Shown piece after piece: positions 9,064 to 20,712 of a stretch of DNA of 64,000 bases. Position numbers and translations under genes: made by a program. Under the pieces are notes generated by a model that was not told the origin of the DNA, did not search any database, and worked only from the letters and a program-made list of their open reading frames with translations. This DNA is from Spirochaetaceae bacterium (GTDB lineage: Bacteria; Spirochaetota; Spirochaetia; DSM-2461), in assembly GCA_051531975.1 (NCBI GenBank), contig JAOPTT010000005.1, forward strand, positions 256,001 to 320,000. Direction: 5' to 3'. Position 1 is the stretch's first letter; each line of letters begins with the position of its first letter.

Positions 9064-9828
9064 GAGAACTACTTTGCTGTTGCAGTTATTTTCTGTCTTT
9101 TAGGTGCTATCTCAATATTTCAAGGTGGACTATTCACCCGTGAGCGTGCTGGAAATCCTGCTCATGAGCATAAATTACACTTGAAAGACAATCTAAAGTC
9201 AATATTTGGCAATGTACCACTACTTCTTGTTTTACTCTCTCTTCAGATGGTTATGATGATGTATTTTGCAAAATACAACCTACAAAATGAAGATCTTATG
9301 ACAGTTATTGCGGGTATAAGTCTAGTATCTATGGCTATAGGTTCAGGTCTTGTTCCCTGGCTTTCAAAATATATTTCTGGAAAGAGACTTGTTCTTTTAA
9401 GTGGATTTGTTCTATCCATATTAGGGACTGTTATGTACTTTGTCGGTTATCATAATATTCTTGTATTCTACATTTTTGCCTTTTTATGGGGTATATTCAT
9501 GGGATTCCCTGAAGTTATACGTACTACAATGATAGCAAACACAGTTGAATGGATGGAGAAAAAAACTGGTAAACGTTGCGATGCAACCATATTTTCGACT
9601 CTAACATTCATTGGAAAACTCATTGCAGGGTTGTTACTTGCATATGTTGGTTTTAAGGCAAATGTCGTACAATCACCTGCCGTACTGGATACCCTTTTTC
9701 AAACTATGACAATAATTCCTGGTATTGGATCACTGATTATGATAATACCTCTGTTCTTTTATAATATTGATGAAAAAACTCATCAGAAACTTGTAGAGGA
9801 ACTATCTAATAATTCGGAAGTTTCATAA
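9064..9828 (+). pseudogene. 5'-truncated glycoside-pentoside-hexuronide (MelB/GPH-like) MFS sugar:cation symporter
   Basis: Frame open from 9064 (YFAVAVIFCLLG...FTRER...LKDNLKSIFGN) with no SD; GPH C-terminal motif MIANTVEWMEKKTGKRCDATIFS; only about the C-terminal half present. Confidence 0.75.
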
Positions 9829-9881: not shown

Positions 9882-11486
9882 TTATTTTTCCAACTCCTGG
9901 CCTAACTTTTTAAGATTAAGTACACTCTGCTCACCAACATCTTTTACAATTGAACTCTCTTCTTCAAGAATTAACATCTTCTCCTGTGTATGTCCAATAG
10001 ATTCCAAAACTAATTCTGATGATTTTAGCTGTTGTACCATTGAGTGAGATATCTGTTGGATTTGATCATTTACATCTCTTATTCCGCTTCTTACTTCAGA
10101 TGTAGATGAGACGGATTGTGCATTACCGTTATTAATATCCTGTGTACCTGCGGAAAGTTCTGTAACTCCCGATAAGATCTCATCCATACCGGATACAACA
10201 TTTTTAATCTCTTCCCTTATCTGGTGGAATGAGTTAGTCGCTGTGCTATTTATATCAGTAGCTGAATTAATTGCTTCACTAATCTTTTTTAACATATCAG
10301 AGATAGTTTTAACGTTATTACCTGAGTTTTCAGATAGTTTTCTTATCTCATCTGCAACAACTGCAAAACCTTTTCCTGCATCACCTGCATGGGCAGCTTC
10401 AATTGCAGCATTCATAGCCAAAAGGCTGGTCTGGGACGCAATATTACTAATAACACTATTTACTTCACCTAAAGATTGTATTAGACCTTGTAAGTTCTCC
10501 ATAGCAGAAGTGGATTCTGATAGTACTTCTTCTGCTCTTTCAGCATTAACCGATAATTTAGTTACAATTAACTTTCTATCCTCTGCGATCTTAGCGATAT
10601 TATTTATTGAACTTGCCATCTCTTCAATTGCTGCTGAAGTCTGTTCAATTACAACAGTTTGGGTTTCACTGGATTTAGATACAACTTCTGAACTCTCTGC
10701 TATAGATGAACTAGACTGTTGTAAGACTCCTGTAGATTCAGAAAGTATAGCAACCTCCTGTTTAATAGAGAGAATCATATCTTTAACTTCTGTAACAGCA
10801 CTTGACATTTTATTTGAAGATTCCATAAGCTCCTCTCCAGTATCAAAATCCCCTTGTAGTTTACCAACAATAGTATGTAAATGCTTTGTTCTTTCTAGGT
10901 TTAAAGAGCTCTCTTTTGATATTGATTCAACAAGATTACGCCCCCGTTTATTAGAACTAATAACAATTATTCCTGAAAAAATTATTAATATCATTGCAAT
11001 AATAGGGTCATCTATAGTTGGTGCTTTATCGTTTAGATTCGCAGGTAAAGCCCTAAAAAAGTGATTAAAGATTATGGCTAAAGATCCAAGAACCATGACT
11101 ATAGCTGGTTCTTTCGGTTTTTCAGTAACTAATAGAGTGATAACAAGGACAAACATCTGAAGAAAAGCGATGAAATATACATCTACATATGATGCTATAT
11201 TCATTGTTAAAATTAGCATTGAGCAAGCAATGGATAAAAAAGTTATAGTAATTGATCTTGCTACATTCATTTTATTCATCTTAACTAAAAAAGTTATGGA
11301 CAGGGTTAAAAAACTCATAATCACCATATATGTTGGGGTCTTTTCCCCTTCGATAATTACAGAAAGAAGAATGAAAATACCTGTTAGACCTAATAATATT
11401 GAAACTAATGAAAAGGCCTGAGTATATAATACGTTATCATCTTCTTTATACCCGCTTAAATAAAACTTATCTATAATCTTTCTCAT
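9882..11486 (-). CDS. Methyl-accepting chemotaxis protein with a multi-TM N-terminal region
   Basis: Signalling hairpin [38 protein letters not shown]; about 6 N-terminal hydrophobic segments. Confidence 0.95.
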
Positions 11487-11542: not shown

Positions 11543-13714
11543 TTATTCAGATAAAAATCTATCTATAACTTGCTGACGATACTCTTTTGACAGAGAGGAA
11601 AAAAATGCTGAATATCCAGTTACCCTAATAACTAAGTCAGGGTGTTTTGAAGGATCTTCGTGAGCCTGCATCAATCTCTCTTTTGTAATACAATTTAAGT
11701 TTATTAATGTCCCACCCATATGGTTATGTGTTTTAATTAACGCCATTAAAGCCTCGATTCCACCTTCACTTTCAACTAGATTACTATCTATATCAAGGTG
11801 TAGTGGTGCGGAGTTCCCTAATCCTGGTTGTGTTTTAGCAACTGCTGTAGCTTTTAAGGATGGGGAAAAGGAGTTAATTCCTCTGGCAAAACCCGGGTCA
11901 GGGTCGTTTGAATGTGAAATAGGATCTTTATCAAATCGTCCATTTGGAGTTGCAGATAAACTTTTTCCGTAGGCATATACATCTCCATGGGAGAACATAC
12001 CGGGGATTATTCTTAACTGGTGTTTAGTTGTTGGGATTTTAGAATAATCCACAAAAAAATCACGTATTTTAAGTGCCCATTTTTCTGAGAGTGAGCCGGG
12101 AGACCCAAACCTGTCTATGTTTTTTAACATTAAACGTATATTCTCTTCATTTTCATAGTTTACATCTAATACATGGAGAAGTTTGTCCCAGGTTAGATTT
12201 TTTTCATTAACTACCCTTAACTCTATTGCAGCAAATGAGTCTGCAACAGTGGCAAGTGCAATACCATCGATACAGAAACTTATATTATCAACACCACCTT
12301 CCGCTACATTTAATCCACGTTCTATAGGACCGTGCATAAAGAGGTTTAAAACAATCTCAGGCTTATTTCTTGATATAACCTCATAGTGACAATCAAAACC
12401 ATCCTTTATTGAATCCAACATTATTTTTAAGTGATATGTAAACTTATCCCACAGAGTATCTAGATCTCTGGTTGTTAATGTTTTTAAATCACCTAGAGAT
12501 TCAACTAGAGCTGTTGCCATATTACATCTTGTTACATCCTGCATTGGATACTCAGTCCCTGGAAGAGCTGTCCAGTTACACCCAACTTTTGCTCTTAATC
12601 TAGCAGCCTGTATAGGAAATCCATTTTTTGAATAACCTTCTTCACACCCTATATTCAGTGAATAATCAACACCTGTTCCATCTGCAAGATTATATTCTAA
12701 ACTTCTGCGAAGTAATTCATCATCAACATCGTCATGCACTCTTAACGCAATGTTTACAGGTATTTTTATCTGGTGCATAGCTTCAAGGATTATATATGAC
12801 ATTTTACTTGTAACATCCCCTGAACCATCGGCCTTTAAACCTGCAATCTGGGAGTAGTGAGTATCATTAAAAAACAGACTTGATATATACCAGATAGCCA
12901 TATCATCTGTTAATATTCCATTTTTTATATCTCGATCGTAATATGGTTTTAATATTTCATCCAGCTGTGAAAGTGCTCCACCAGCAAAATAAGTCCTATC
13001 AAAAACTTGGAAATGTGCTAAAAACTGACACGATTCCCTAAGGGTTCTTGGAGGATTATCTATAAGCCATCTATTTATCTTGGCTATTTCTATATAATTA
13101 TTACGTTTAAAACTATCTTGCTCTGTCTCTGCAAGGTCTTCTGCGTAATTAGCATGATTCGTTATCCACTGCTTAATTCCCAGTAGTAGTAACTCTTCCC
13201 CATCATAAAATGAGGTATCGGTTGGATTGTTTTTGGCTCTATAATGTCTAACTTTATTAAGAAGGCCTGCCCAACCAAGTTCTAAACCTATATTCATATC
13301 AGGACCAAAGTGGTTCATAGCTCCAAATCCACTTTGCCAAATGTTGTATCTATTCCAAATCTTTTCCAGATGTAAAGGTCTGTCTTCAGGGATAATATCA
13401 ATTTTAACCCAGTTTTGAAGATAACCAACCCAGCATCCAGCTAGGGCACTATTTGCATTTATGTATTTTGGGGATTCATTGAGATATTTTCTAAAAGTTT
13501 CACCAATAGCTTTAGAACCATATATATAACCGTCTTTGTGATTTGGCTCTGCAGTAAAATTAAAATCCGGATGTAGAATAAATCCATGATCATCGACATC
13601 TATATATCCAAGTTTTTTAATTTTATCACTATTTATTGATATTTTATTTTTATGAAGTCCATTAATTAATTTTTTATATTTATCTGAAACTGTTATTTTC
13701 TCAAAATAGTTCAT
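11543..13714 (-). CDS. Glycyl radical enzyme (PFL superfamily), uncharacterised class
   Basis: C-terminal glycyl loop HPDLVIRVTGYSAFF; ATPNGR motif; single-Cys loop KVGCNW; adjacent activating enzyme. Confidence 0.92.
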   Translation of the reverse strand: MNYFEKITVSDKYKKLINGLHKNKISINSDKIKKLGYIDVDDHGFILHPDFNFTAEPNHKDGYIYGSKAIGETFRKYLNESPKYINANSALAGCWVGYLQNWVKIDIIPEDRPLHLEKIWNRYNIWQSGFGAMNHFGPDMNIGLELGWAGLLNKVRHYRAKNNPTDTSFYDGEELLLLGIKQWITNHANYAEDLAETEQDSFKRNNYIEIAKINRWLIDNPPRTLRESCQFLAHFQVFDRTYFAGGALSQLDEILKPYYDRDIKNGILTDDMAIWYISSLFFNDTHYSQIAGLKADGSGDVTSKMSYIILEAMHQIKIPVNIALRVHDDVDDELLRRSLEYNLADGTGVDYSLNIGCEEGYSKNGFPIQAARLRAKVGCNWTALPGTEYPMQDVTRCNMATALVESLGDLKTLTTRDLDTLWDKFTYHLKIMLDSIKDGFDCHYEVISRNKPEIVLNLFMHGPIERGLNVAEGGVDNISFCIDGIALATVADSFAAIELRVVNEKNLTWDKLLHVLDVNYENEENIRLMLKNIDRFGSPGSLSEKWALKIRDFFVDYSKIPTTKHQLRIIPGMFSHGDVYAYGKSLSATPNGRFDKDPISHSNDPDPGFARGINSFSPSLKATAVAKTQPGLGNSAPLHLDIDSNLVESEGGIEALMALIKTHNHMGGTLINLNCITKERLMQAHEDPSKHPDLVIRVTGYSAFFSSLSKEYRQQVIDRFLSE

Positions 13715-13723
13715 TTTATACTC

Positions 13724-14617
13724 CTATTTTATATTCAAACCACAAGCTTTAAGCTCAATTTTTGCTATTTCCACTTGTTCTTTTGTAGGTATTATAAACT
13801 TGTTATAATCCATTTCAAGCAGATTGTACTTATTTTCACCTAGTTTATGATAAGGAAGTATCTCTACACTTTTAATATTAAGAGGTTTTAATATATCTCC
13901 CATCTTCTTAAACTGATTTTCATTAACTCCAATAATAAGGGGGATTCTTATAATAATATCCTTATTATTCTCTGATAATTTTTTTAAGTTTTCCAATATT
14001 AAATAATTATCCACACCTGTATATTTTTTGTAGATATTTGTATCTGCAGCTTTAAGATCAAAAAGAAAAAGATCGGTAACATCCAAAATTCTTTCAAAAG
14101 AACTCCATGGGACATTTCCTGCAGTATCAATTGCGGTATGTATGTTCTCTTTTTTACAATCAGTTAAAATTGTCTCTAAAAACTCTATTTGAAGCATAGA
14201 CTCTCCACCGGAAAATGTTACACCACCATCTGAATTATTAAAATAATCCCTATCAGTTAGTATATTTTCTAAAACATTTTTTCGGTCTATATCTTTTCCC
14301 ACACCTACAATTGCTTCTGCAAAACAGTTCTGGGCACATTTAAAACATGCGGTACAGGAGTCTCTATCTATCTTATGAATGTTTTTATTATCCAACAGAT
14401 GAACACTGTTTTGACAAACATCAAAACAGTTATTACAAACGATACATTTATCAGGATAAAATTCTATATGATTTTTGTGTTTTATAGATTCAGGATTATG
14501 GCACCAGGAACATTTTAGGTTGCAACCTTTAAAAAAAACTACAGTCCTTATTCCTGGGCCATCATGAACAGAAAAACGTTGAATATCAAAGATTCTTGCG
14601 TTATTTATTTTTTTCAC
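13724..14617 (-). CDS. Glycyl-radical enzyme activating enzyme (radical SAM with ferredoxin insert)
   Basis: FDIQRFSVHDGPGIRTVVFFKGCNLKCSWCHNPES; CIVCNNCFDVC and CTACFKCAQNC; GGVTFSGGE; LPYHKLG. Confidence 0.95.
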   Translation of the reverse strand: MKKINNARIFDIQRFSVHDGPGIRTVVFFKGCNLKCSWCHNPESIKHKNHIEFYPDKCIVCNNCFDVCQNSVHLLDNKNIHKIDRDSCTACFKCAQNCFAEAIVGVGKDIDRKNVLENILTDRDYFNNSDGGVTFSGGESMLQIEFLETILTDCKKENIHTAIDTAGNVPWSSFERILDVTDLFLFDLKAADTNIYKKYTGVDNYLILENLKKLSENNKDIIIRIPLIIGVNENQFKKMGDILKPLNIKSVEILPYHKLGENKYNLLEMDYNKFIIPTKEQVEIAKIELKACGLNIK

Positions 14618-16976
14618 TTTCCAACCGCAGTTGTACTAGGACATCGGGACGTACACATACAAAATCCGGTCCTAAACTTTTCTGAACTTCCTGAAGTCTG
14701 TCCATTGACCAGTTCCAGTTAAGAACCCACGCTTCAATAAAATTCTCTCCACGTGTAGCAGCTTCACGGATTTCACCAGCCATATGTTCCACTCGTTCCT
14801 CTATAGGTAGAGAAGGAGCAAAAGAGGATGCTGAGCGACAGGCGACAACATCGTTTGGAGCTACCCTTGCACAAGCAGCACTAGGAGCACCTCCATAACC
14901 TGTAAAAATACCCTTTAGCTGACCTGTTGAGTGTTTTGCATATCTATCTTCCTCATCGTTTCCACCATTAATTAACCAGAGACAGGATGTATCAATCGAG
15001 CTCATTGCTTTCTCTGTCATTAAAGCATACTTTGTATATAGCTCTTCCCGCTGCTCTGGGTAGGCCATAAGATAAATTATAGGTTCTGTATATCCAACAC
15101 CAAGTCCACCAACAAGCAAGTCGTTTTCCGATGCTGTTCTAAGGTAATAATTAAGTACGGTCGGAGCCATCATAGCTGCAGATGGAGCAAATGACCAACC
15201 CATAGGAATTGAGCCTCGTTGTGTCTTATCCCACTGTAGTTCCCTAGTCTGGAGCATTAATGCCTCCCCAAGATTATCTCCATCGGACATTATATGTGTA
15301 TAATAAACTTTATCTGGATCCAGTTTAGGAACATTTGGTTTCTTGTGTTTATACCCTCCTGTTTCTACACCGGAGTGAATTGTCAGATTTGTTGCTTCAT
15401 GGGATGGGGTTAGTATTTTACCAAAAAAAGAACCAAGTAGAAGTCCAGGTTCTTCTAATACAGCATCAGCCATACGATCCCCACCTTCTGGAACATTTGG
15501 CATCCAGTCAAACCACCAGCCTATTATTGGAGTATTTGGTGGAGTTGAGGCCAATATACCTCGAAGAAGATTCTCTTCCGGTAAGGTTCTTGTCATTGGA
15601 AACCAGAAAGTAAATATTTTAAATGATACAAGGTAATCAGTTAACAGAAAGATTCCAGGATAACATGTCGCCAGTATATTATGATTCATTTTTGGGTAGA
15701 GTTCAGTGTATGCCCAGTGCATCATCTCGTACTGGGAGGACCACTTGCCTCTAACATCAAAAATAACTGGTAGATTTAATTTTTCATTCATCTGGGGGGT
15801 TACCGGTACAGCGTCCTCTATGGAACCGATCATCATAACTACATTGGTCTCATTTAGACTGTTTGCATATTTTTGTCCAATGTTATCCATGATTGAACCA
15901 TCGTAAATAACTGAACCGTTAATTTTATCCCTAAAAATATCCCATGTTTGAGACTGGGAAACCATTTTAGAGGTATAACCTTCAAAGTGCAGCTCTTCAA
16001 GCCACTCTCTATCCTGTCTGTCATACCTAGTATGAAGAAGGTATAAAGATGGTTTTTTCCGGTTTACAAGTCCCTGAAGTACCGAAAATGCAAACTCCTC
16101 CTGGGGTGTAGCACTACTTACATCAAGAATATAAAGTGTTTTGGCAGGTCTAGGTGATTGTGGCCATAAGTTTGGATAAGGTTTTATTCCAGTAACCGGT
16201 TCATAACCAACAGGTACATCTTGGAAAGGCTGAAAACTTCCAGTCTCATTAAGTCGGTATTCAAAAGAGTTTACCCAGGCTTTATCCCACTCTGTTGCAA
16301 ATGCATCATTTTTTAGACTTTCAAGGACAAGCCGGGTCTCTTCATCTTTTTTAGCAGAAGCGTATATCTCTAACAATGCAAAACGAGATAATATTCTACT
16401 AAGATTATCAGGACAATCCTCTATTAATTTGTTTAATTTCCAAGTAACATTATCTGGAGTATCTAAAATGTCTACTTGCCAACTAACATTCCATGGATCA
16501 TCTCCTGAGTGTATTTTTACTAATATAGTGTTTACTCCAGGTTTAAGGTGACATAGCATATAGTCGTATTGTAACCTTATACCAGGGTGGGGGATAGTTC
16601 TGTAAAGAGTTTGTTCTTCATTTATCCATGCTGCAACTATTGCTTCGGAACCTATAGTTATTTCCGCTATTTGTTCATATTTAACTTCAACTTCTAAATG
16701 TATGTAATAGACACTCCATGTCTCTCTATCATGATCCATTACAGAACCAGACTGCCACGGTGTAACTCCATTTTTCCCAGGATACTCTGAATTAGGATCG
16801 AAACCTTCTTCTGGTGGATAGGGTATAAATACTCCCTGATATCCGGCGTTCTCATATGGACCTGAAAAATGAAGACTTTTAGGTATTAATGTTGTCTTCT
16901 TTGGAAAACTTTTTTCAAGTAGAGTTTGCCATTTAGCCCTTGCAGTATTGTTAATATTATTAACTAATTGTTTCAT
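14601..16976 (-). CDS. GxGYxYP-family putative glycoside hydrolase with extra N-terminal beta-sandwich-like domain, no signal peptide
   Basis: LQGLVNRKKPSLY, TDYLVS, NLTIHSG, MSDGDNL, RGSIPMGWS and GGLGVGYTEP match the GxGYxYP N/C domain pattern. Confidence 0.78.
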   Translation of the reverse strand: MKQLVNNINNTARAKWQTLLEKSFPKKTTLIPKSLHFSGPYENAGYQGVFIPYPPEEGFDPNSEYPGKNGVTPWQSGSVMDHDRETWSVYYIHLEVEVKYEQIAEITIGSEAIVAAWINEEQTLYRTIPHPGIRLQYDYMLCHLKPGVNTILVKIHSGDDPWNVSWQVDILDTPDNVTWKLNKLIEDCPDNLSRILSRFALLEIYASAKKDEETRLVLESLKNDAFATEWDKAWVNSFEYRLNETGSFQPFQDVPVGYEPVTGIKPYPNLWPQSPRPAKTLYILDVSSATPQEEFAFSVLQGLVNRKKPSLYLLHTRYDRQDREWLEELHFEGYTSKMVSQSQTWDIFRDKINGSVIYDGSIMDNIGQKYANSLNETNVVMMIGSIEDAVPVTPQMNEKLNLPVIFDVRGKWSSQYEMMHWAYTELYPKMNHNILATCYPGIFLLTDYLVSFKIFTFWFPMTRTLPEENLLRGILASTPPNTPIIGWWFDWMPNVPEGGDRMADAVLEEPGLLLGSFFGKILTPSHEATNLTIHSGVETGGYKHKKPNVPKLDPDKVYYTHIMSDGDNLGEALMLQTRELQWDKTQRGSIPMGWSFAPSAAMMAPTVLNYYLRTASENDLLVGGLGVGYTEPIIYLMAYPEQREELYTKYALMTEKAMSSIDTSCLWLINGGNDEEDRYAKHSTGQLKGIFTGYGGAPSAACARVAPNDVVACRSASSFAPSLPIEERVEHMAGEIREAATRGENFIEAWVLNWNWSMDRLQEVQKSLGPDFVCVRPDVLVQLRLESEKNK

Positions 16977-17017
16977 TTAGTTCTCCTAAATATAAGTGTA
17001 TATATATAGATGTAATT

Positions 17018-17074
17018 TGTTATATCATTTGATTGCAATATGATATAACATATCATGGATACTGATAAAGTCAA
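17018..17074 (-). promoter_or_regulatory. Promoter of the GxGYxYP-GRE operon with overlapping inverted-repeat operator
   Basis: Minus strand TTGACT-16-TATGTT with extended TGn; TGTTATATCAT (17018-17028) / ATGATATAACA (17040-17050) inverted repeat; ATGATAT-AAC-ATATCAT palindrome (17040-17056). Confidence 0.55.
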
Positions 17075-17118
17075 GAAAAAGAACTTTTTATTACATCTAT
17101 ATTATTTACAAATTATTA

Positions 17119-17196
17119 TTGACAAACAGTATTGTTATTGTAATATTTTAGACGTAATAACTTGTATAATGAATCCAGATATTTGATATGTCATAT
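17119..17196 (+). promoter_or_regulatory. Candidate GH3 promoter(s) and operator box
   Basis: TTGACA (17119) -16- TAATAT; TATAAT at 17165; box TGATATGTCATAT (17184-17196) is 12/13 identical to the minus-strand box TGATATGTTATAT of the divergent promoter. Confidence 0.45.
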
Positions 17197-17229
17197 TTAT
17201 TCATTATATATAAGGGAGAAAAGGTTTCC

Positions 17230-19356
17230 ATGGCAGATTATAAAAAAATGGCTAACGATATAATTTCAGATATGACAGTAAAAGAGAAGGTTTCACAGAT
17301 GGTTCATGGAGCCAGGGGAATCTCCAGACTGCAGATCCCTGCTTATAACTGGTGGAATGAGTGTTTACATGGTGTTGGTAGAGCTGGTATTGCAACTGTA
17401 TTTCCCCAGCCAATAGGTTTGGCTGCTATGTTTGATGATAATTTTTTAAAAGAGATCGCTGAAGTTATTTCCGATGAGGTTAGGGCTAAATATAATGAAG
17501 TTAATATTGTAGATAAAAAGATACAATCATCAAAATTATTAGGAAAATTACAAGCTCATAAATTATGGTACAGAGGATTAACATGCTGGAGTCCAAACAT
17601 CAATATATTTAGGGACCCAAGGTGGGGACGTGGACATGAAACTTTTGGTGAAGATCCATATCTAACCAGTAGGTTAGGAGTCGCATTTATTAAAGGTCTA
17701 CAAGGTGAAAATCCAGAGTTTCTGAAAGTTGTTGCAACACCAAAACATTTTGCTGTTCATAGTGGTCCTGAGTTTAACAGGCATAGTTTTAACTCTGTTG
17801 TAAATAAAAAAGATCTATACGAAACATATCTTCCGGCATTTAAAGCCTGTATTCAGGAGGGTAAAGCCGCATCTATAATGACAGCATATAACGCTTTTAA
17901 TGGGGAACCTTGTGCATCAAGCGAAGAACTCCTACAACATATTTTAAGGGATGAGTGGGGTTTTAATGGTTTTGTTGTATCAGATTGTGGAGCAATTCAA
18001 GATATCAGAAAACATCATAAAAAGACAAAAAGTAATACTGTAGCTGCATCAATGGCTGTAAATGCAGGTTGTGATCTAAACTGTGGAACAATGTATAATT
18101 TCTTAGCTAATGCTGTAAAAAAAGGACTTGTTACAGAAGACACCCTAGATATAAGTTTAACTAGACTTTTTGAAGCACGTATTAAACTAGGAATGTTATC
18201 TTCTAGAACAAAAAATCCATATGATGAAATTAAACCTGATGTTATAAACTGTAAAAAACATCGGGATCTTGCTTTAGAAGCTTCAAAAAAATCACTTGTT
18301 TTACTAAAAAATGATGGTATATTGCCATTAAAAAAAGAGATAAAAAAAATAGCGGTTATAGGTCCAAATGCAGATTCTAAATCCGTACTTTTAGGTAATT
18401 ATAGTGGTGATCCTTCATCTTTTTCTACTATATTAAGTGGAATAAAAAAATCATTTTATGGTGAAGTTCTTTATACTCAAGGTTGCCACTTAACTAAAAC
18501 AAATACTAAAGATTTTAAAAAGGTTATAGCCCTCGCAAAAGAAGCAGATGTCGTTATATTAGCGATTGGTCTAGCTCCTGAAATAGAAGGAGAAGAGGGG
18601 GATGCATTTAATTCAGATGCTGCCGGGGATAAACTTACAATAAAATTACCTGGACTTCAGGAGAACTTAATTAAAACCCTTAATAATGTAGGAACTCCTG
18701 TTGTAGCTACTGTTTTAGCTGGTAGTGCCCTTGATTTAAGAGTGCTTGAAAAAAACTCTTCTGCAATTATTCAAGCATGGTATCCGGGGCAGGATGGAGG
18801 GGAAGCAGTTGCAAAACTAATCTTTGGTGAATACTCTCCATCAGGTAGACTTCCTGTTACTTTTGTTGAATCAGATAGTGATCTACCAGATTTTGAAGAT
18901 TATTCAATGGTAGGAAGAACATACAGGTTTTTAAATAAACCCCCACTGTATCCATTTGGTTTTGGATTAAGTTATACCAACTTTGATTATGATAACCTGG
19001 TAACATCCTGGACTGGTAGTGAAGAGAACAAAAGTCTGAAAGTTAGTATTACAGTTAAAAATACAGGTAATATAGACTCAGATGAAATAGTACAATATTA
19101 CTATAAATTTCATGACAAAGATAATAACTCTGCAAATTTCCAGCTATGCAAGTTTAGTCGAATAACTTTAAAAGTTGGTGAAACTGTAACCTTAGAGACA
19201 AATATTCCTTTAGAAATGTTTAAAGGTATAGATAACAATGGGAAATCAGTACTAAGAAATGGGGATTACACTATATTTGTTGGAGGTTCCGGGCCTGATA
19301 AAAGAAGTGAACAGTTAGTTAAAAGAGAAGTGCTAAAATTGAGCTTTAAATTATAA
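17230..19356 (+). CDS. GH3 beta-glucosidase/beta-xylosidase, cytoplasmic
   Basis: WWNECLHG, WSPNINIFRDPRWGRGHETFGEDP, KHFAVH, nucleophile region VVSDCGA, EGEEGD, YPFGFGLSY. Start placed at ATG 17230 after a purine-rich SD-like stretch. Confidence 0.93.
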   Translation: MADYKKMANDIISDMTVKEKVSQMVHGARGISRLQIPAYNWWNECLHGVGRAGIATVFPQPIGLAAMFDDNFLKEIAEVISDEVRAKYNEVNIVDKKIQSSKLLGKLQAHKLWYRGLTCWSPNINIFRDPRWGRGHETFGEDPYLTSRLGVAFIKGLQGENPEFLKVVATPKHFAVHSGPEFNRHSFNSVVNKKDLYETYLPAFKACIQEGKAASIMTAYNAFNGEPCASSEELLQHILRDEWGFNGFVVSDCGAIQDIRKHHKKTKSNTVAASMAVNAGCDLNCGTMYNFLANAVKKGLVTEDTLDISLTRLFEARIKLGMLSSRTKNPYDEIKPDVINCKKHRDLALEASKKSLVLLKNDGILPLKKEIKKIAVIGPNADSKSVLLGNYSGDPSSFSTILSGIKKSFYGEVLYTQGCHLTKTNTKDFKKVIALAKEADVVILAIGLAPEIEGEEGDAFNSDAAGDKLTIKLPGLQENLIKTLNNVGTPVVATVLAGSALDLRVLEKNSSAIIQAWYPGQDGGEAVAKLIFGEYSPSGRLPVTFVESDSDLPDFEDYSMVGRTYRFLNKPPLYPFGFGLSYTNFDYDNLVTSWTGSEENKSLKVSITVKNTGNIDSDEIVQYYYKFHDKDNNSANFQLCKFSRITLKVGETVTLETNIPLEMFKGIDNNGKSVLRNGDYTIFVGGSGPDKRSEQLVKREVLKLSFKL

Positions 19357-19443: not shown

Positions 19444-20712
19444 TTGGTGATGGATATATATTTTGGTATCGATTTTGGTACAACAAATACTGTTATTTCT
19501 ATAGCAGGTAAAAAAGATAAAATAATTGATAGTTTCTCGGTTCCTACAATACTTTACATTCCGATGGATGAGAAAGGAATTAATAAGGTTTATATAGGTG
19601 ATGATGCAGTTGAAAGATATAGGATTGAGGGTGATGGAAGATATATACACTCAATTAAAAGATCTTTAATTGATTCTAACTTTAAACATACTGTTATCAA
19701 TTCAGTTAAAGTCTCTCTTGAGAATTTAATAGCAATATTCCTAAAAGAACTTAAAGAGCAAATATACCAAAAATGGGGTATATATCCAGTAAAAATAGCT
19801 TTAGGAAGACCAGTAAAATTTTCTGTAGATGAAGAGCATAATATTCTTGCTAATAACAGACTGCTTGATGGTTTTAAGTTGGCAGGTTTTGATAAAATAT
19901 TACAACTTGAAGAACCCATAGCTGCAACTTATGGAATAGATTCTAATACTAAGATAGAACAAGAAAATGTTTTAGTAATTGATATAGGTGGTGGGACTAC
20001 TGACTTAACATCAATGTATATAAACAACTCAAAAGATGGTATATCAAAATTTGAAGTAATGGATTTAGATGGTATTGATATTGGTGGTGATAATTTTGAT
20101 GAAGATATAATGTTTAAGGTTATAGCTCCATCTCTAGGTTTAAATGAAACCTATAAAAACTATAATAAATCCTATGAATTACCTATACATATTTTTACGG
20201 ATATATGCAAATGGAATATTATTCATAGATTTAATAGAGTAAAATTTCACGAAGAAATTAAAGATTATTTATATGGTTCTAGTAATCCTAAAGCTATAAA
20301 GATGTTAAAAAAAGTTTATACAGAACGACTTTCATCATTAATTTTAAGTATTATAAAAGACGCTAAACATATGTTTACCAGTAATAAGGTAGCTAACATT
20401 GATCTTAGTAACAGTAACTTAGATATATCAACAACACTGTTAAGGGATAGTTTAACAAATATATTGGATAAAAGTTTAGTTAAGATATCAGATATCTTAA
20501 GTGACTTTATGTCAAGAAAAGACGATAAATTTGACAAAATTATAGTAACAGGTGGAAGTTCTAAATTACCTATAGTAAAAAAAATAATAATTGATCTATG
20601 CCATCCTATTTTAATGGAATTTGATGATAATTATTATAGTAGTATATCTAATGGATTGGCTCTTTATTGTAAGTATAGTTATGAGGATAACAGTAGTTTA
20701 AGCAATAAATAA
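19444..20712 (+). CDS. Hsp70-family (YegD-like) ATPase lacking the substrate-binding domain
   Basis: GIDFGTTN, GRPVKF, EEPIAA, DIGGGTTD, IGGDNFD, TGGSS. Confidence 0.85.
   Translation: MVMDIYFGIDFGTTNTVISIAGKKDKIIDSFSVPTILYIPMDEKGINKVYIGDDAVERYRIEGDGRYIHSIKRSLIDSNFKHTVINSVKVSLENLIAIFLKELKEQIYQKWGIYPVKIALGRPVKFSVDEEHNILANNRLLDGFKLAGFDKILQLEEPIAATYGIDSNTKIEQENVLVIDIGGGTTDLTSMYINNSKDGISKFEVMDLDGIDIGGDNFDEDIMFKVIAPSLGLNETYKNYNKSYELPIHIFTDICKWNIIHRFNRVKFHEEIKDYLYGSSNPKAIKMLKKVYTERLSSLILSIIKDAKHMFTSNKVANIDLSNSNLDISTTLLRDSLTNILDKSLVKISDILSDFMSRKDDKFDKIIVTGGSSKLPIVKKIIIDLCHPILMEFDDNYYSSISNGLALYCKYSYEDNSSLSNK

Follow-up and report, generated by a model that had tools for sequence, protein, structure and literature searches.

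A putative carbohydrate-catabolic operon of a spirochaete, centred on a glycyl radical enzyme of a large uncharacterised Cys-Asn-Trp clade

Some of the most demanding chemistry of anaerobic metabolism is catalysed by glycyl radical enzymes (GREs). Those characterised number only several dozen among thousands of sequences (PMC13450708, a 2026 review of which sections are drawn on here and below). The sugar-acting members named in those sections are YbiW and PflD only; these are C-O lyases of 1,5-anhydroglucitol-6-phosphate and 1,5-anhydromannitol-6-phosphate ('anhydroglycolysis') and set the precedent for the cleavage of sugar C-O bonds by GREs (PMC13450708). All six C-O eliminases and all three isomerases covered there, YbiW and PflD included, keep a Cys-x-Glu (C-x-E) motif whose Glu hydrogen-bonds or deprotonates the substrate, and two loop cysteines are assigned to PFL and TdcE only (PMC13450708). 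Here we analyse a window of 64,000 nucleotides (the whole stretch of DNA considered: positions 256,001 to 320,000, forward strand, of contig JAOPTT010000005.1, assembly GCA_051531975.1) from a Spirochaetaceae bacterium, in which a GRE and its activating enzyme are encoded together with a member of the orphan GxGYxYP family of putative glycosidases. We read this locus, with a confidence that lies a little above even, as a cytoplasmic carbohydrate-catabolic accessory operon whose core is the activase and a GRE of a large uncharacterised clade.

Three minus-strand genes make up the operon. The gene for the GxGYxYP-family protein (14601..16976, 791 aa) comes first; it is followed by that for the GRE-activating radical S-adenosylmethionine (SAM) enzyme (activase; 13724..14617, 297 aa, GTG start) and, third in transcription order, by that for the GRE (11543..13714, 723 aa). 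The first two genes overlap by 17 bp (14601-14617), which suggests translational coupling, and 9 bp (13715-13723) separate the last two; the genes are presumably co-transcribed. An open reading frame (ORF) for a glycoside hydrolase of family 3 (GH3; 17188..19356, plus strand, 722 aa) diverges from them. A sequence-only reading of the window had already proposed this arrangement and these identities; the overlap and the gap agree exactly with the ORF coordinates, and Pfam and NCBIfam bear out all four assignments.

The GRE carries the marks of its superfamily. Pfam recognises a PFL-like domain (219 bits) and Gly_radical (48.6 bits, cut-off 22.2). The radical fingerprint RVTGYSAFF has Gly700 at the radical glycine position, and its R697-V-T-G700-Y segment (11612..11626, minus strand, translating to RVTGY) satisfies the superfamily fingerprint RVxG[FWY] (PMC13450708). 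C379 aligns with the loop cysteine of CutC and PflD, both of which have the loop G-C-V-E. An AlphaFold model (pLDDT 74.5, pTM 0.80, with low confidence in the Gly and Cys loops) matched 91 PDB chains at E<=0.001 in Foldseek, and every match listed was a GRE. The predicted ten-stranded barrel fold and the dedicated activase place the protein within the superfamily.

The enzyme nevertheless fits none of the characterised classes. All NCBIfam equivalog scores lie 4 to 20 times under the cut-off: 180.6 bits for TIGR01774, the best model (cut-off 678.2), 171.5 for HpsG (1000), 159.9 for HypD (1100), 129.6 for CutC (1050), 102.7 for HPAD (1150), 92.7 for IAD (1100) and 43.5 for PFL (TIGR01255; 994.2). 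The thiyl (Cys) loop reads G378-C379-N380-W381 (12572..12583, minus strand, translating to GCNW). The C-x-E motif of the 1,2-eliminases and isomerases, HplG included, is absent, and so is the adjacent Cys pair of the formate lyases, a single Cys being followed by Asn. Because the loop is Cys-Asn-Trp, the active site is predicted to be new, without the eliminase/isomerase Glu base and without the second Cys of PFL. The model lies about equally far from eliminases, isomerases, X-succinate synthases and decarboxylases (TM score 0.67-0.76, 14-20% identity). Genes for small accessory subunits have no room inside the operon, given its 17-bp overlap and 9-bp gap; the rest of the genome was not searched for them. 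Still, the overall fold and the radical motifs are common to known GREs, and the best PDB sequence matches are CutC (E 6e-45), PflD (8yjo, E 2.2e-38), HpsG and glycerol dehydratase, with BSS and MASS weak; these resemblances could be taken to indicate a divergent PFL, dehydratase/eliminase, isomerase, decarboxylase or X-succinate synthase. The shortfall of the equivalog scores, the loss of both C-x-E and C-C, the invariance of C-N-W described below, the low identity to solved GREs and the lack of space for small-subunit genes make this extremely improbable. We rejected a known-class identity on the NCBIfam scores, the PDB matches and the invariant loop, and the sequence-only reading, under which the enzyme would perform new GRE chemistry, is supported as far as class membership goes.

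The two closest described groups resemble this GRE in different ways. PflD is among its best matches (TM 0.76, about 18% identity), and YbiW and PflD are likewise sugar-acting enzymes with a dedicated activase in carbohydrate catabolism. However, they keep C-x-E, with the Glu deprotonating the C2-OH (PMC13450708), where the window enzyme has C-N-W. In addition, their substrates are phosphorylated, whereas the loci of the window clade mostly carry ATP-binding cassette (ABC) importers, and the substrates of the clade would therefore be unphosphorylated. The best Foldseek matches (5i2g and 1r8w, TM 0.75) belong to the second group, the GRE 1,2-eliminases, among which CutC is the best match by sequence. 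These eliminases (B12-independent glycerol dehydratase GD, 1,2-propanediol dehydratase PD, CutC, HypD, IslA and HpsG/HpfG) use the same activase type with two ferredoxin clusters (TIGR02494), but they retain C-x-E (PMC13450708) and are about 780-850 aa long, while the window GRE lacks the motif, is shorter (723 aa) and scores 129-181 bits against cut-offs of 678-1100.

The enzyme is no isolated oddity. Among 7998 proteins scored in the sequence database, 1144 are relatives at E<=1e-10; the best 120 are 59-71% identical, are about 720 aa long and carry no other names than 'pyruvate-formate lyase' or 'formate C-acetyltransferase'. With one genome per species for 185,579 species, 474 of 505 candidate stretches encode a relative, and the clade is widespread in gut and environmental Clostridia and Chloroflexota; cultured carriers are Robinsoniella peoriensis, Eisenbergiella tayi DSM 26961, Anaerocolumna sp. 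AGMB13025, Scatolibacter rhodanostii and Gallintestinimicrobium propionicum. G378, C379, N380 and W381 are invariant in a 15-member alignment, as are many Trp, His and Asp residues. GCNW is found in all 119 database relatives listed and in 76 of 77 family ORFs of the fetched loci, the 77th being a fragment that begins past the Cys loop; RVTG[YF] is found in the same 119 relatives and in 77 of 78 locus ORFs, the 78th clustered ORF being a different GRE. More distant relatives read G-C-H-W (41% identity, in a genome of the same class) or G-C-Q-W (the second such GRE of the spirochaete's own genome, on contig C7), so that the Cys-Asn-Trp clade sits inside a wider Cys-x-Trp branch.

The locus counts for the GRE clade are drawn from the best-scoring 80 of the 474 stretches. 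Five loci (L018, L026, L043, L049 and L065) in which an antisense ORF had been taken for the GRE were dropped from the census, the motif count and the tree; the frames concerned, about 760 aa long and antisense to the GRE gene, are in all likelihood mechanical artefacts. The census also excludes ten further loci that have under 6 kb of flank, which leaves 65 informative loci. In a quick IQ-TREE phylogeny, drawn with midpoint rooting and with fragments and the five mis-called loci left out, the window GRE is sister to a Lachnospiraceae (Herbinix) GRE (support 99) within a Bacillota clade of 61 rows (support 100). The Herbinix locus has a GH38 gene and an ABC importer, and no GxGYxYP homologue was found in that genome. 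Context types track subclades of the tree. Two loci show duplications: in one (L055, 9352-13789), tandem duplicate Cys-Asn-Trp GREs stand behind a single activase, and in the other (L061, 6211-12172), there are two consecutive activase-GRE pairs, the first with a different GRE of 674 aa.

The activase is the constant partner of the clade. It scores 336.1 bits with TIGR02494 (PFLE_PFLC; cut-off 174.35), has Radical_SAM and Fer4 matches with a two-cluster ferredoxin-like insert at residues 52-100, and carries CNLKCSWC at residues 32-39, a Cx3Cx2C motif (C32-x3-C36-x2-C39). It remains under every substrate-specific activase cut-off, for instance that of HypD-AE (333.9 against 425 bits). Across the 67 loci with at least 950 bp of upstream sequence, an activase gene lies on the same strand and at most 700 bp upstream of the GRE gene in 61. 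Five of the six exceptions are Chloroflexota, and activase homologues occur elsewhere in all four of these genomes that were searched.

The neighbourhoods of the clade are mostly those of sugar metabolism. The ORFs of the 80 loci were clustered and the cluster representatives annotated, and at least one recurrent carbohydrate cluster was present in 46 of the 65 informative loci. The clusters comprise ABC sugar permeases (27 of 65 loci), a family that we label U760 (16), GFO/IDH/MocA (GFO) oxidoreductases (14), a 590-aa binding-protein-like gene (14), GH38 (13), a GntR/PBP regulator (11), GH4 (4), xylose-isomerase-like TIM proteins (3) and GxGYxYP (3). For the remaining 19 loci, Pfam was run on 59 of 81 candidate neighbour ORFs, and seven of these loci proved to carry genes related to carbohydrates (CBM9, GH59, GH2/UxaC, PA14/LamG, FGGY kinase, sulfatase and SGNH esterase): L002, L013, L014, L017, L070, L077 and L080, the last two with weaker evidence. 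Counting the weaker calls, up to 53 of the 65 loci are flanked by carbohydrate genes. The commonest order is GntR/PBP regulator, two ABC sugar permeases, the 590-aa gene, U760, activase, GRE and GH38 alpha-mannosidase. A second architecture has AraC, activase, GRE and two GFO oxidoreductases, often accompanied by GH4, an ABC importer or a DHDPS-family aldolase. Further gene types come from the loci of named isolates: E. tayi has GH106-like, SDR and enolase-superfamily genes, Herbinix has GH65 and GH15, and GH32 also occurs. Regulators of sugar type (GntR-PBP, LacI or AraC) stand at most loci. The sugar setting that had been predicted for this GRE is thus what is mostly found around its relatives: genes for sugar import, glycosidases and sugar oxidoreductases. 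Other neighbours deserve mention. A Cys/Met-type pyridoxal-phosphate (PLP) enzyme is encoded directly upstream of the activase in L019 and L029, URO-D-family genes lie near the Cys-Asn-Trp GREs of L007, L077 and L080, and an Anaerolineae locus (L064, 2225-3921) has APH/fructosamine-kinase-like and creatininase-family genes among those for GFO, U760, GxGYxYP, GRE and GH38.

U760, which has no Pfam match even at E<=1, is taken to be an undescribed glycosidase resembling clan GH-A. An Atlas search gave leads only (GH42 and GHL10, 0.92-0.93), and only the fold search was informative: in it the structural model (pLDDT 84) aligned with a GH35 exo-beta-glucosaminidase, with GH42 enzymes and with a GH164 beta-mannosidase (E 7e-18 to 4e-11, 10-11% identity). 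With the query used, U760 was not found in the spirochaete's own genome, which is 98.5% complete.

The best-described relative of the first gene product is BT2193 (PDB 3SGG) of PF14323. Rigden et al. (2014; PMC4071793, of which part is drawn on here) proposed a Glu/Asp/Asp catalytic site for the family, noted GH38 and GH92 mannosidase genes beside its members, and reported that assays of members from mannan polysaccharide-utilisation loci (PULs) found no activity. We found no later literature on GxGYxYP, PF14323, BT2193 or 3SGG that reports any. The window protein has the same domain set: GxGYxYP_N, _N_2nd, _N_3rd and _C all lie in residues 281-783, with scores for the four domains of 125.8, 46.3, 35.1 and 33.0 bits against cut-offs of 27, 24.4, 24.5 and 23.9. 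It matches 3sgg with an E value of 6.6e-9 (phmmer), and E509, D565, D567 and N568 align with E272, D331, D333 and N334 of BT2193, so that the putative catalytic Glu/Asp/Asp and the Asn are kept (the offset of 21 between the 3sgg chain and BT2193 numbering was derived from the SDGDN motif). The mannosidase association of the family appears here again, as GH38. The window protein differs from BT2193 in belonging to a rare subfamily of about 800 aa, in its additional N-terminal region of 280 residues, in having no apparent signal peptide and in standing outside the Bacteroidota PULs. Residues 1-280 have no Pfam match and a best Atlas score of 0.87, under the trust level, and the whole protein has no NCBIfam match. 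At E<=1e-20 the full-length subfamily holds 112 proteins, all unnamed or 'hypothetical', that is, 112 clusters at 90% identity among 5.8 billion.

The GH3 protein has Glyco_hydro_3 (180.8 bits), Glyco_hydro_3_C (182.4 bits) and Fn3-like domains. It is xylosidase/glucosidase-like, but with 805.6 bits it stays below the cut-off of the xylan 1,4-beta-xylosidase equivalog Xyl3A (1250), so that the assignment goes no further than GH3. Its start is more likely the ATG at 17230 than that of the longest ORF, as an AAGGGAG ribosome-binding site precedes it. By Kyte-Doolittle hydropathy alone, neither hydrolase has an apparent signal peptide, as had been claimed: the maximal 12-residue mean over the first 60 residues is 0.23 for the GxGYxYP protein and 0.66-0.94 for GH3. 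Both hydrolases look cytoplasmic by this measure. Membership of GH3 in the system was considered and rejected as unsupported; its coupling to the GRE, part of the earlier proposal, is not conserved, with one weak match (68 bits) in 80 loci, and there is no close counterpart in three genomes of the same genus (33-38% identity).

We propose the following course for the operon. A glycoside or oligosaccharide would be imported and then trimmed in the cytoplasm by the GxGYxYP protein, a task that in relatives may fall to GH38, to U760 (a new GH35/42/164-like family) or to other glycosidases. The activated GRE would then abstract a hydrogen atom from the released neutral, sugar-derived molecule and catalyse either a rearrangement that breaks a C-O bond or a dehydration, in the way that YbiW/PflD or the diol dehydratases do, but relying on another acid/base set, in which the base may be something other than the canonical Glu. 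The product would enter central metabolism. The cytoplasmic route, the sugar-derived substrate and the C-O chemistry are inferred. Hydrolysis of a glycoside in the cytoplasm, already put forward by the sequence-only reading, accords with the apparently cytoplasmic hydrolases; the relatives usually have an ABC sugar importer, and import followed by cytoplasmic hydrolysis fits both.

Several observations weigh against this reading. The missing Glu is the base that the known C-O-cleaving GREs use, and the type of reaction may differ. The GxGYxYP gene abuts the GRE gene in only 4 of the 80 loci that were chosen by their GRE (L064-L067, all Chloroflexota); in these it is full-length, 57-67% identical and directly upstream of the GRE, with no activase between. 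Conversely, no GRE was found in nine metagenome loci chosen by their GxGYxYP gene, four of which have at least 2 kb of downstream sequence. GH3 occurs near the clade as that one weak match, about 6 kb away. Twelve to 14 of the 65 informative loci lack a carbohydrate neighbour. The partner glycosidases are very diverse (GH38, GH4, GH2, GH32, GH59, GH65, GH15, GH106-like, U760 and GxGYxYP), and therefore no single glycan emerges; this diversity fits a common downstream metabolite or substrates specific to subclades, and subclades of the GRE may indeed differ in substrate. Beside the operon there is no intact sugar transporter, only a truncated symporter gene. Finally, the choice of the 80 best-scoring stretches biases the census towards the relatives of the window.

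The coupling of GxGYxYP and GRE in the earlier proposal stands in part. In the nine GxGYxYP metagenome loci, U760 lies directly upstream in five, GFO genes occur in four and GH38 in one, and xylose-isomerase-like TIM and ABC components also occur. The GH38/GH-A-like/GFO sugar loci of Clostridia and Chloroflexota adjoin the GRE clade and the GxGYxYP subfamily each, while the window itself lacks GH38, U760 and GFO and has GxGYxYP alone, perhaps with GH3, in the company of its GRE. The two families thus each associate with U760, GH38 and GFO, and only sometimes with each other. The GxGYxYP-linked GREs fall in a separate Chloroflexota/Latescibacterota clade of eight rows, outside which the window GRE falls; since these GREs are in separate clades, the pairing seems to have arisen at least twice, independently, although it may instead go back to an ancient linkage with later loss. 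What holds of the proposed coupling is that a rare subfamily met the GRE in two separate clades and shares its partners; what does not is regular linkage, in view of 4 of 80 loci and none of nine in reverse.

How else might the locus be explained? Only the activase and the GRE may form a functional unit, the GxGYxYP and GH3 genes being accidental neighbours in an island that do not supply the GRE with substrate. The activase-GRE pair is the sole strictly conserved one (61 of 67 loci), the two hydrolases are as scarce around the clade as the counts above indicate, GRE is missing from all nine GxGYxYP-ascertained loci, and one Chloroflexota genome (G065) carries its GRE and GxGYxYP genes on different contigs. 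But the 17-bp overlap of the GxGYxYP and activase genes suggests that they are translated together, the same rare subfamily abuts a GRE in a second, separate clade, and the partners U760, GH38 and GFO are common to both families; we regard accidental neighbourhood as unlikely. A sugar context may also merely be the source of a GRE substrate that is no carbohydrate (an aglycone, a sulfur or methyl compound, or an amino-acid derivative), or a coincidence. This would suit the 12 to 14 loci without a carbohydrate neighbour, the PLP enzyme upstream of the activase in L019 and L029, and the URO-D-family genes both in L007, L077 and L080 and near the second Cys-x-Trp GRE of the spirochaete. Set against the sugar ABC importers, glycosidases and GntR-PBP, LacI or AraC regulators of most loci, such a substrate is in our view rather improbable.

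GFO oxidoreductases, xylose-isomerase-like TIM proteins and GH4 are associated with the cleavage of glycosides by redox-elimination. Their frequent presence beside the clade raises another explanation, in which the GRE acts as a 'radical glycoside lyase' that breaks a glycosidic or ring C-O bond of the intact glycoside and so works alongside the hydrolases, not downstream of them. N380 and W381, next to the catalytic Cys, recall sugar-binding sites, as do the clade's numerous invariant Trp, His and Asp residues, and YbiW/PflD do cleave a C-O bond of a sugar ring (PMC13450708). GRE active sites are, however, small and buried with a narrow substrate scope (PMC13450708), and no base equivalent to the Glu of C-x-E has been identified here. 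Lyase action on an intact glycoside is accordingly an explanation to which we give little credence. A bolder form of the catabolic reading would make the Cys-Asn-Trp GREs, together with the wider Cys-x-Trp branch, a functional class not described before, with neutral, unphosphorylated sugars or glycosides as substrates. Such an enzyme might, for example, be a radical lyase of C-O bonds or a dehydratase that acts on mannose-type sugars, on anhydro-sugars or on the glycosidic bond itself; the Trp would stack on the sugar ring, the base would not be Glu, and the GxGYxYP protein would be the substrate-supplying glycosidase. We offer this tentatively, as a possibility clearly short of an even chance. 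If it were true, anaerobes would have a previously unknown radical entry into glycan fermentation, and the orphan GxGYxYP family would receive its first function.

Our literature search found no link of a GRE to GxGYxYP, GH38/mannosidase or GFO genes, and nothing on this clade among the papers listed for GREs together with glycoside hydrolase gene clusters, in line with the earlier claim that no operon coupling GxGYxYP to a GRE has been described. The clade may already figure, unnamed, among the clusters in the network of Levin et al. (2017); the part of the 2018 addendum drawn on here (PMC6219649) contains nothing on it, and the sections of the 2026 review drawn on here list no Cys-x-Trp class (PMC13450708). 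What is new here is the metabolic setting of a GRE whose catalytic loop differs from those known; the GxGYxYP link adds a further new detail, with modest support. A large clade with a different loop and a consistent carbohydrate context is a concrete target in the search for new radical sugar chemistry, and the tie of two orphan putative glycosidase families (the GxGYxYP subfamily and U760) to the GRE gene network narrows the search for the substrates of these families.

Within its own lineage the operon stands apart. A search of 60 relatives at E<=1e-150 gave no member of the GRE clade and, as its single match, the 41%-identical GCHW enzyme; the operon is for that reason read as an accessory acquisition. 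The GxGYxYP subfamily was likewise found in none of three same-genus genomes and, as one weak match, in 36 same-family genomes; on the Chloroflexota side, a search of 250 further genomes from the class to which L064 belongs did not turn it up. G+C within the window peaks in the 14-16 kb bin (0.383; 0.284-0.367 in the rest), and the operon was probably acquired horizontally. The genome encodes five other PFL-like proteins: one PFL (CCVS), three C-x-E enzymes and the GCQW enzyme. The last, a GRE of 754 aa with a KVTGY Gly motif (G000:C7:143000-162000, L109), has its own activase, an AraC regulator, two URO-D-family genes and a methyl-accepting chemotaxis protein (MCP), with a DeoR regulator, a class II aldolase, GH123 and fucose isomerase genes nearby. 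A distant GxGYxYP paralogue (G000:C5:172717-174156, L089; 28% identity, a 532-aa frame without the N-terminal region) lies on the same contig as the operon, about 82 kb before the window.

The GxGYxYP and GH3 genes share a divergent intergenic region (16977..17229). It measures 253 bp up to the likelier GH3 start and 211 bp if the longest ORF is used, so the earlier estimate of about 250 bp was accurate. At 17018-17050 two 11-bp arms around a spacer of 11 nt form a perfect inverted repeat, which has no second copy in the window and appears in none of 100 shuffles; it is a possible operator. A related half-site (17184-17196) lies close to the GH3 start, and no regulator gene is adjacent. Scans for promoter-like matches (50, against 54.5 expected from shuffles) and terminator-like sites (5, against 6.0) gave counts no higher than shuffles and are therefore uninformative on transcription units.

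Beyond the GRE gene, a minus-strand gene for an MCP (9882..11486; MCPsignal 100 bits) begins 56 bp past the GRE stop codon with its own AAGGAG. It is possibly a fourth gene of the transcription unit; no terminator-like site was seen between the two genes in the scan, itself not above chance. The N-terminal 300 or so residues of the MCP match no Pfam family. A 273-aa frame antisense to it (10243-11064, plus strand) is most likely a mechanical artefact. Further on, 9064-9828 (plus strand) encodes only the C-terminal half of a glycoside-pentoside-hexuronide (GPH) symporter (positions 242-427 of 427 in Pfam MFS_2); as the N-terminal half is not in frame upstream, the transporter gene has probably been truncated or has decayed. 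On the other side, right after GH3, 19444-20712 (plus strand) encodes an Hsp70/actin-fold protein of the YegD type (PRK11678, 136 bits, below cut-off).

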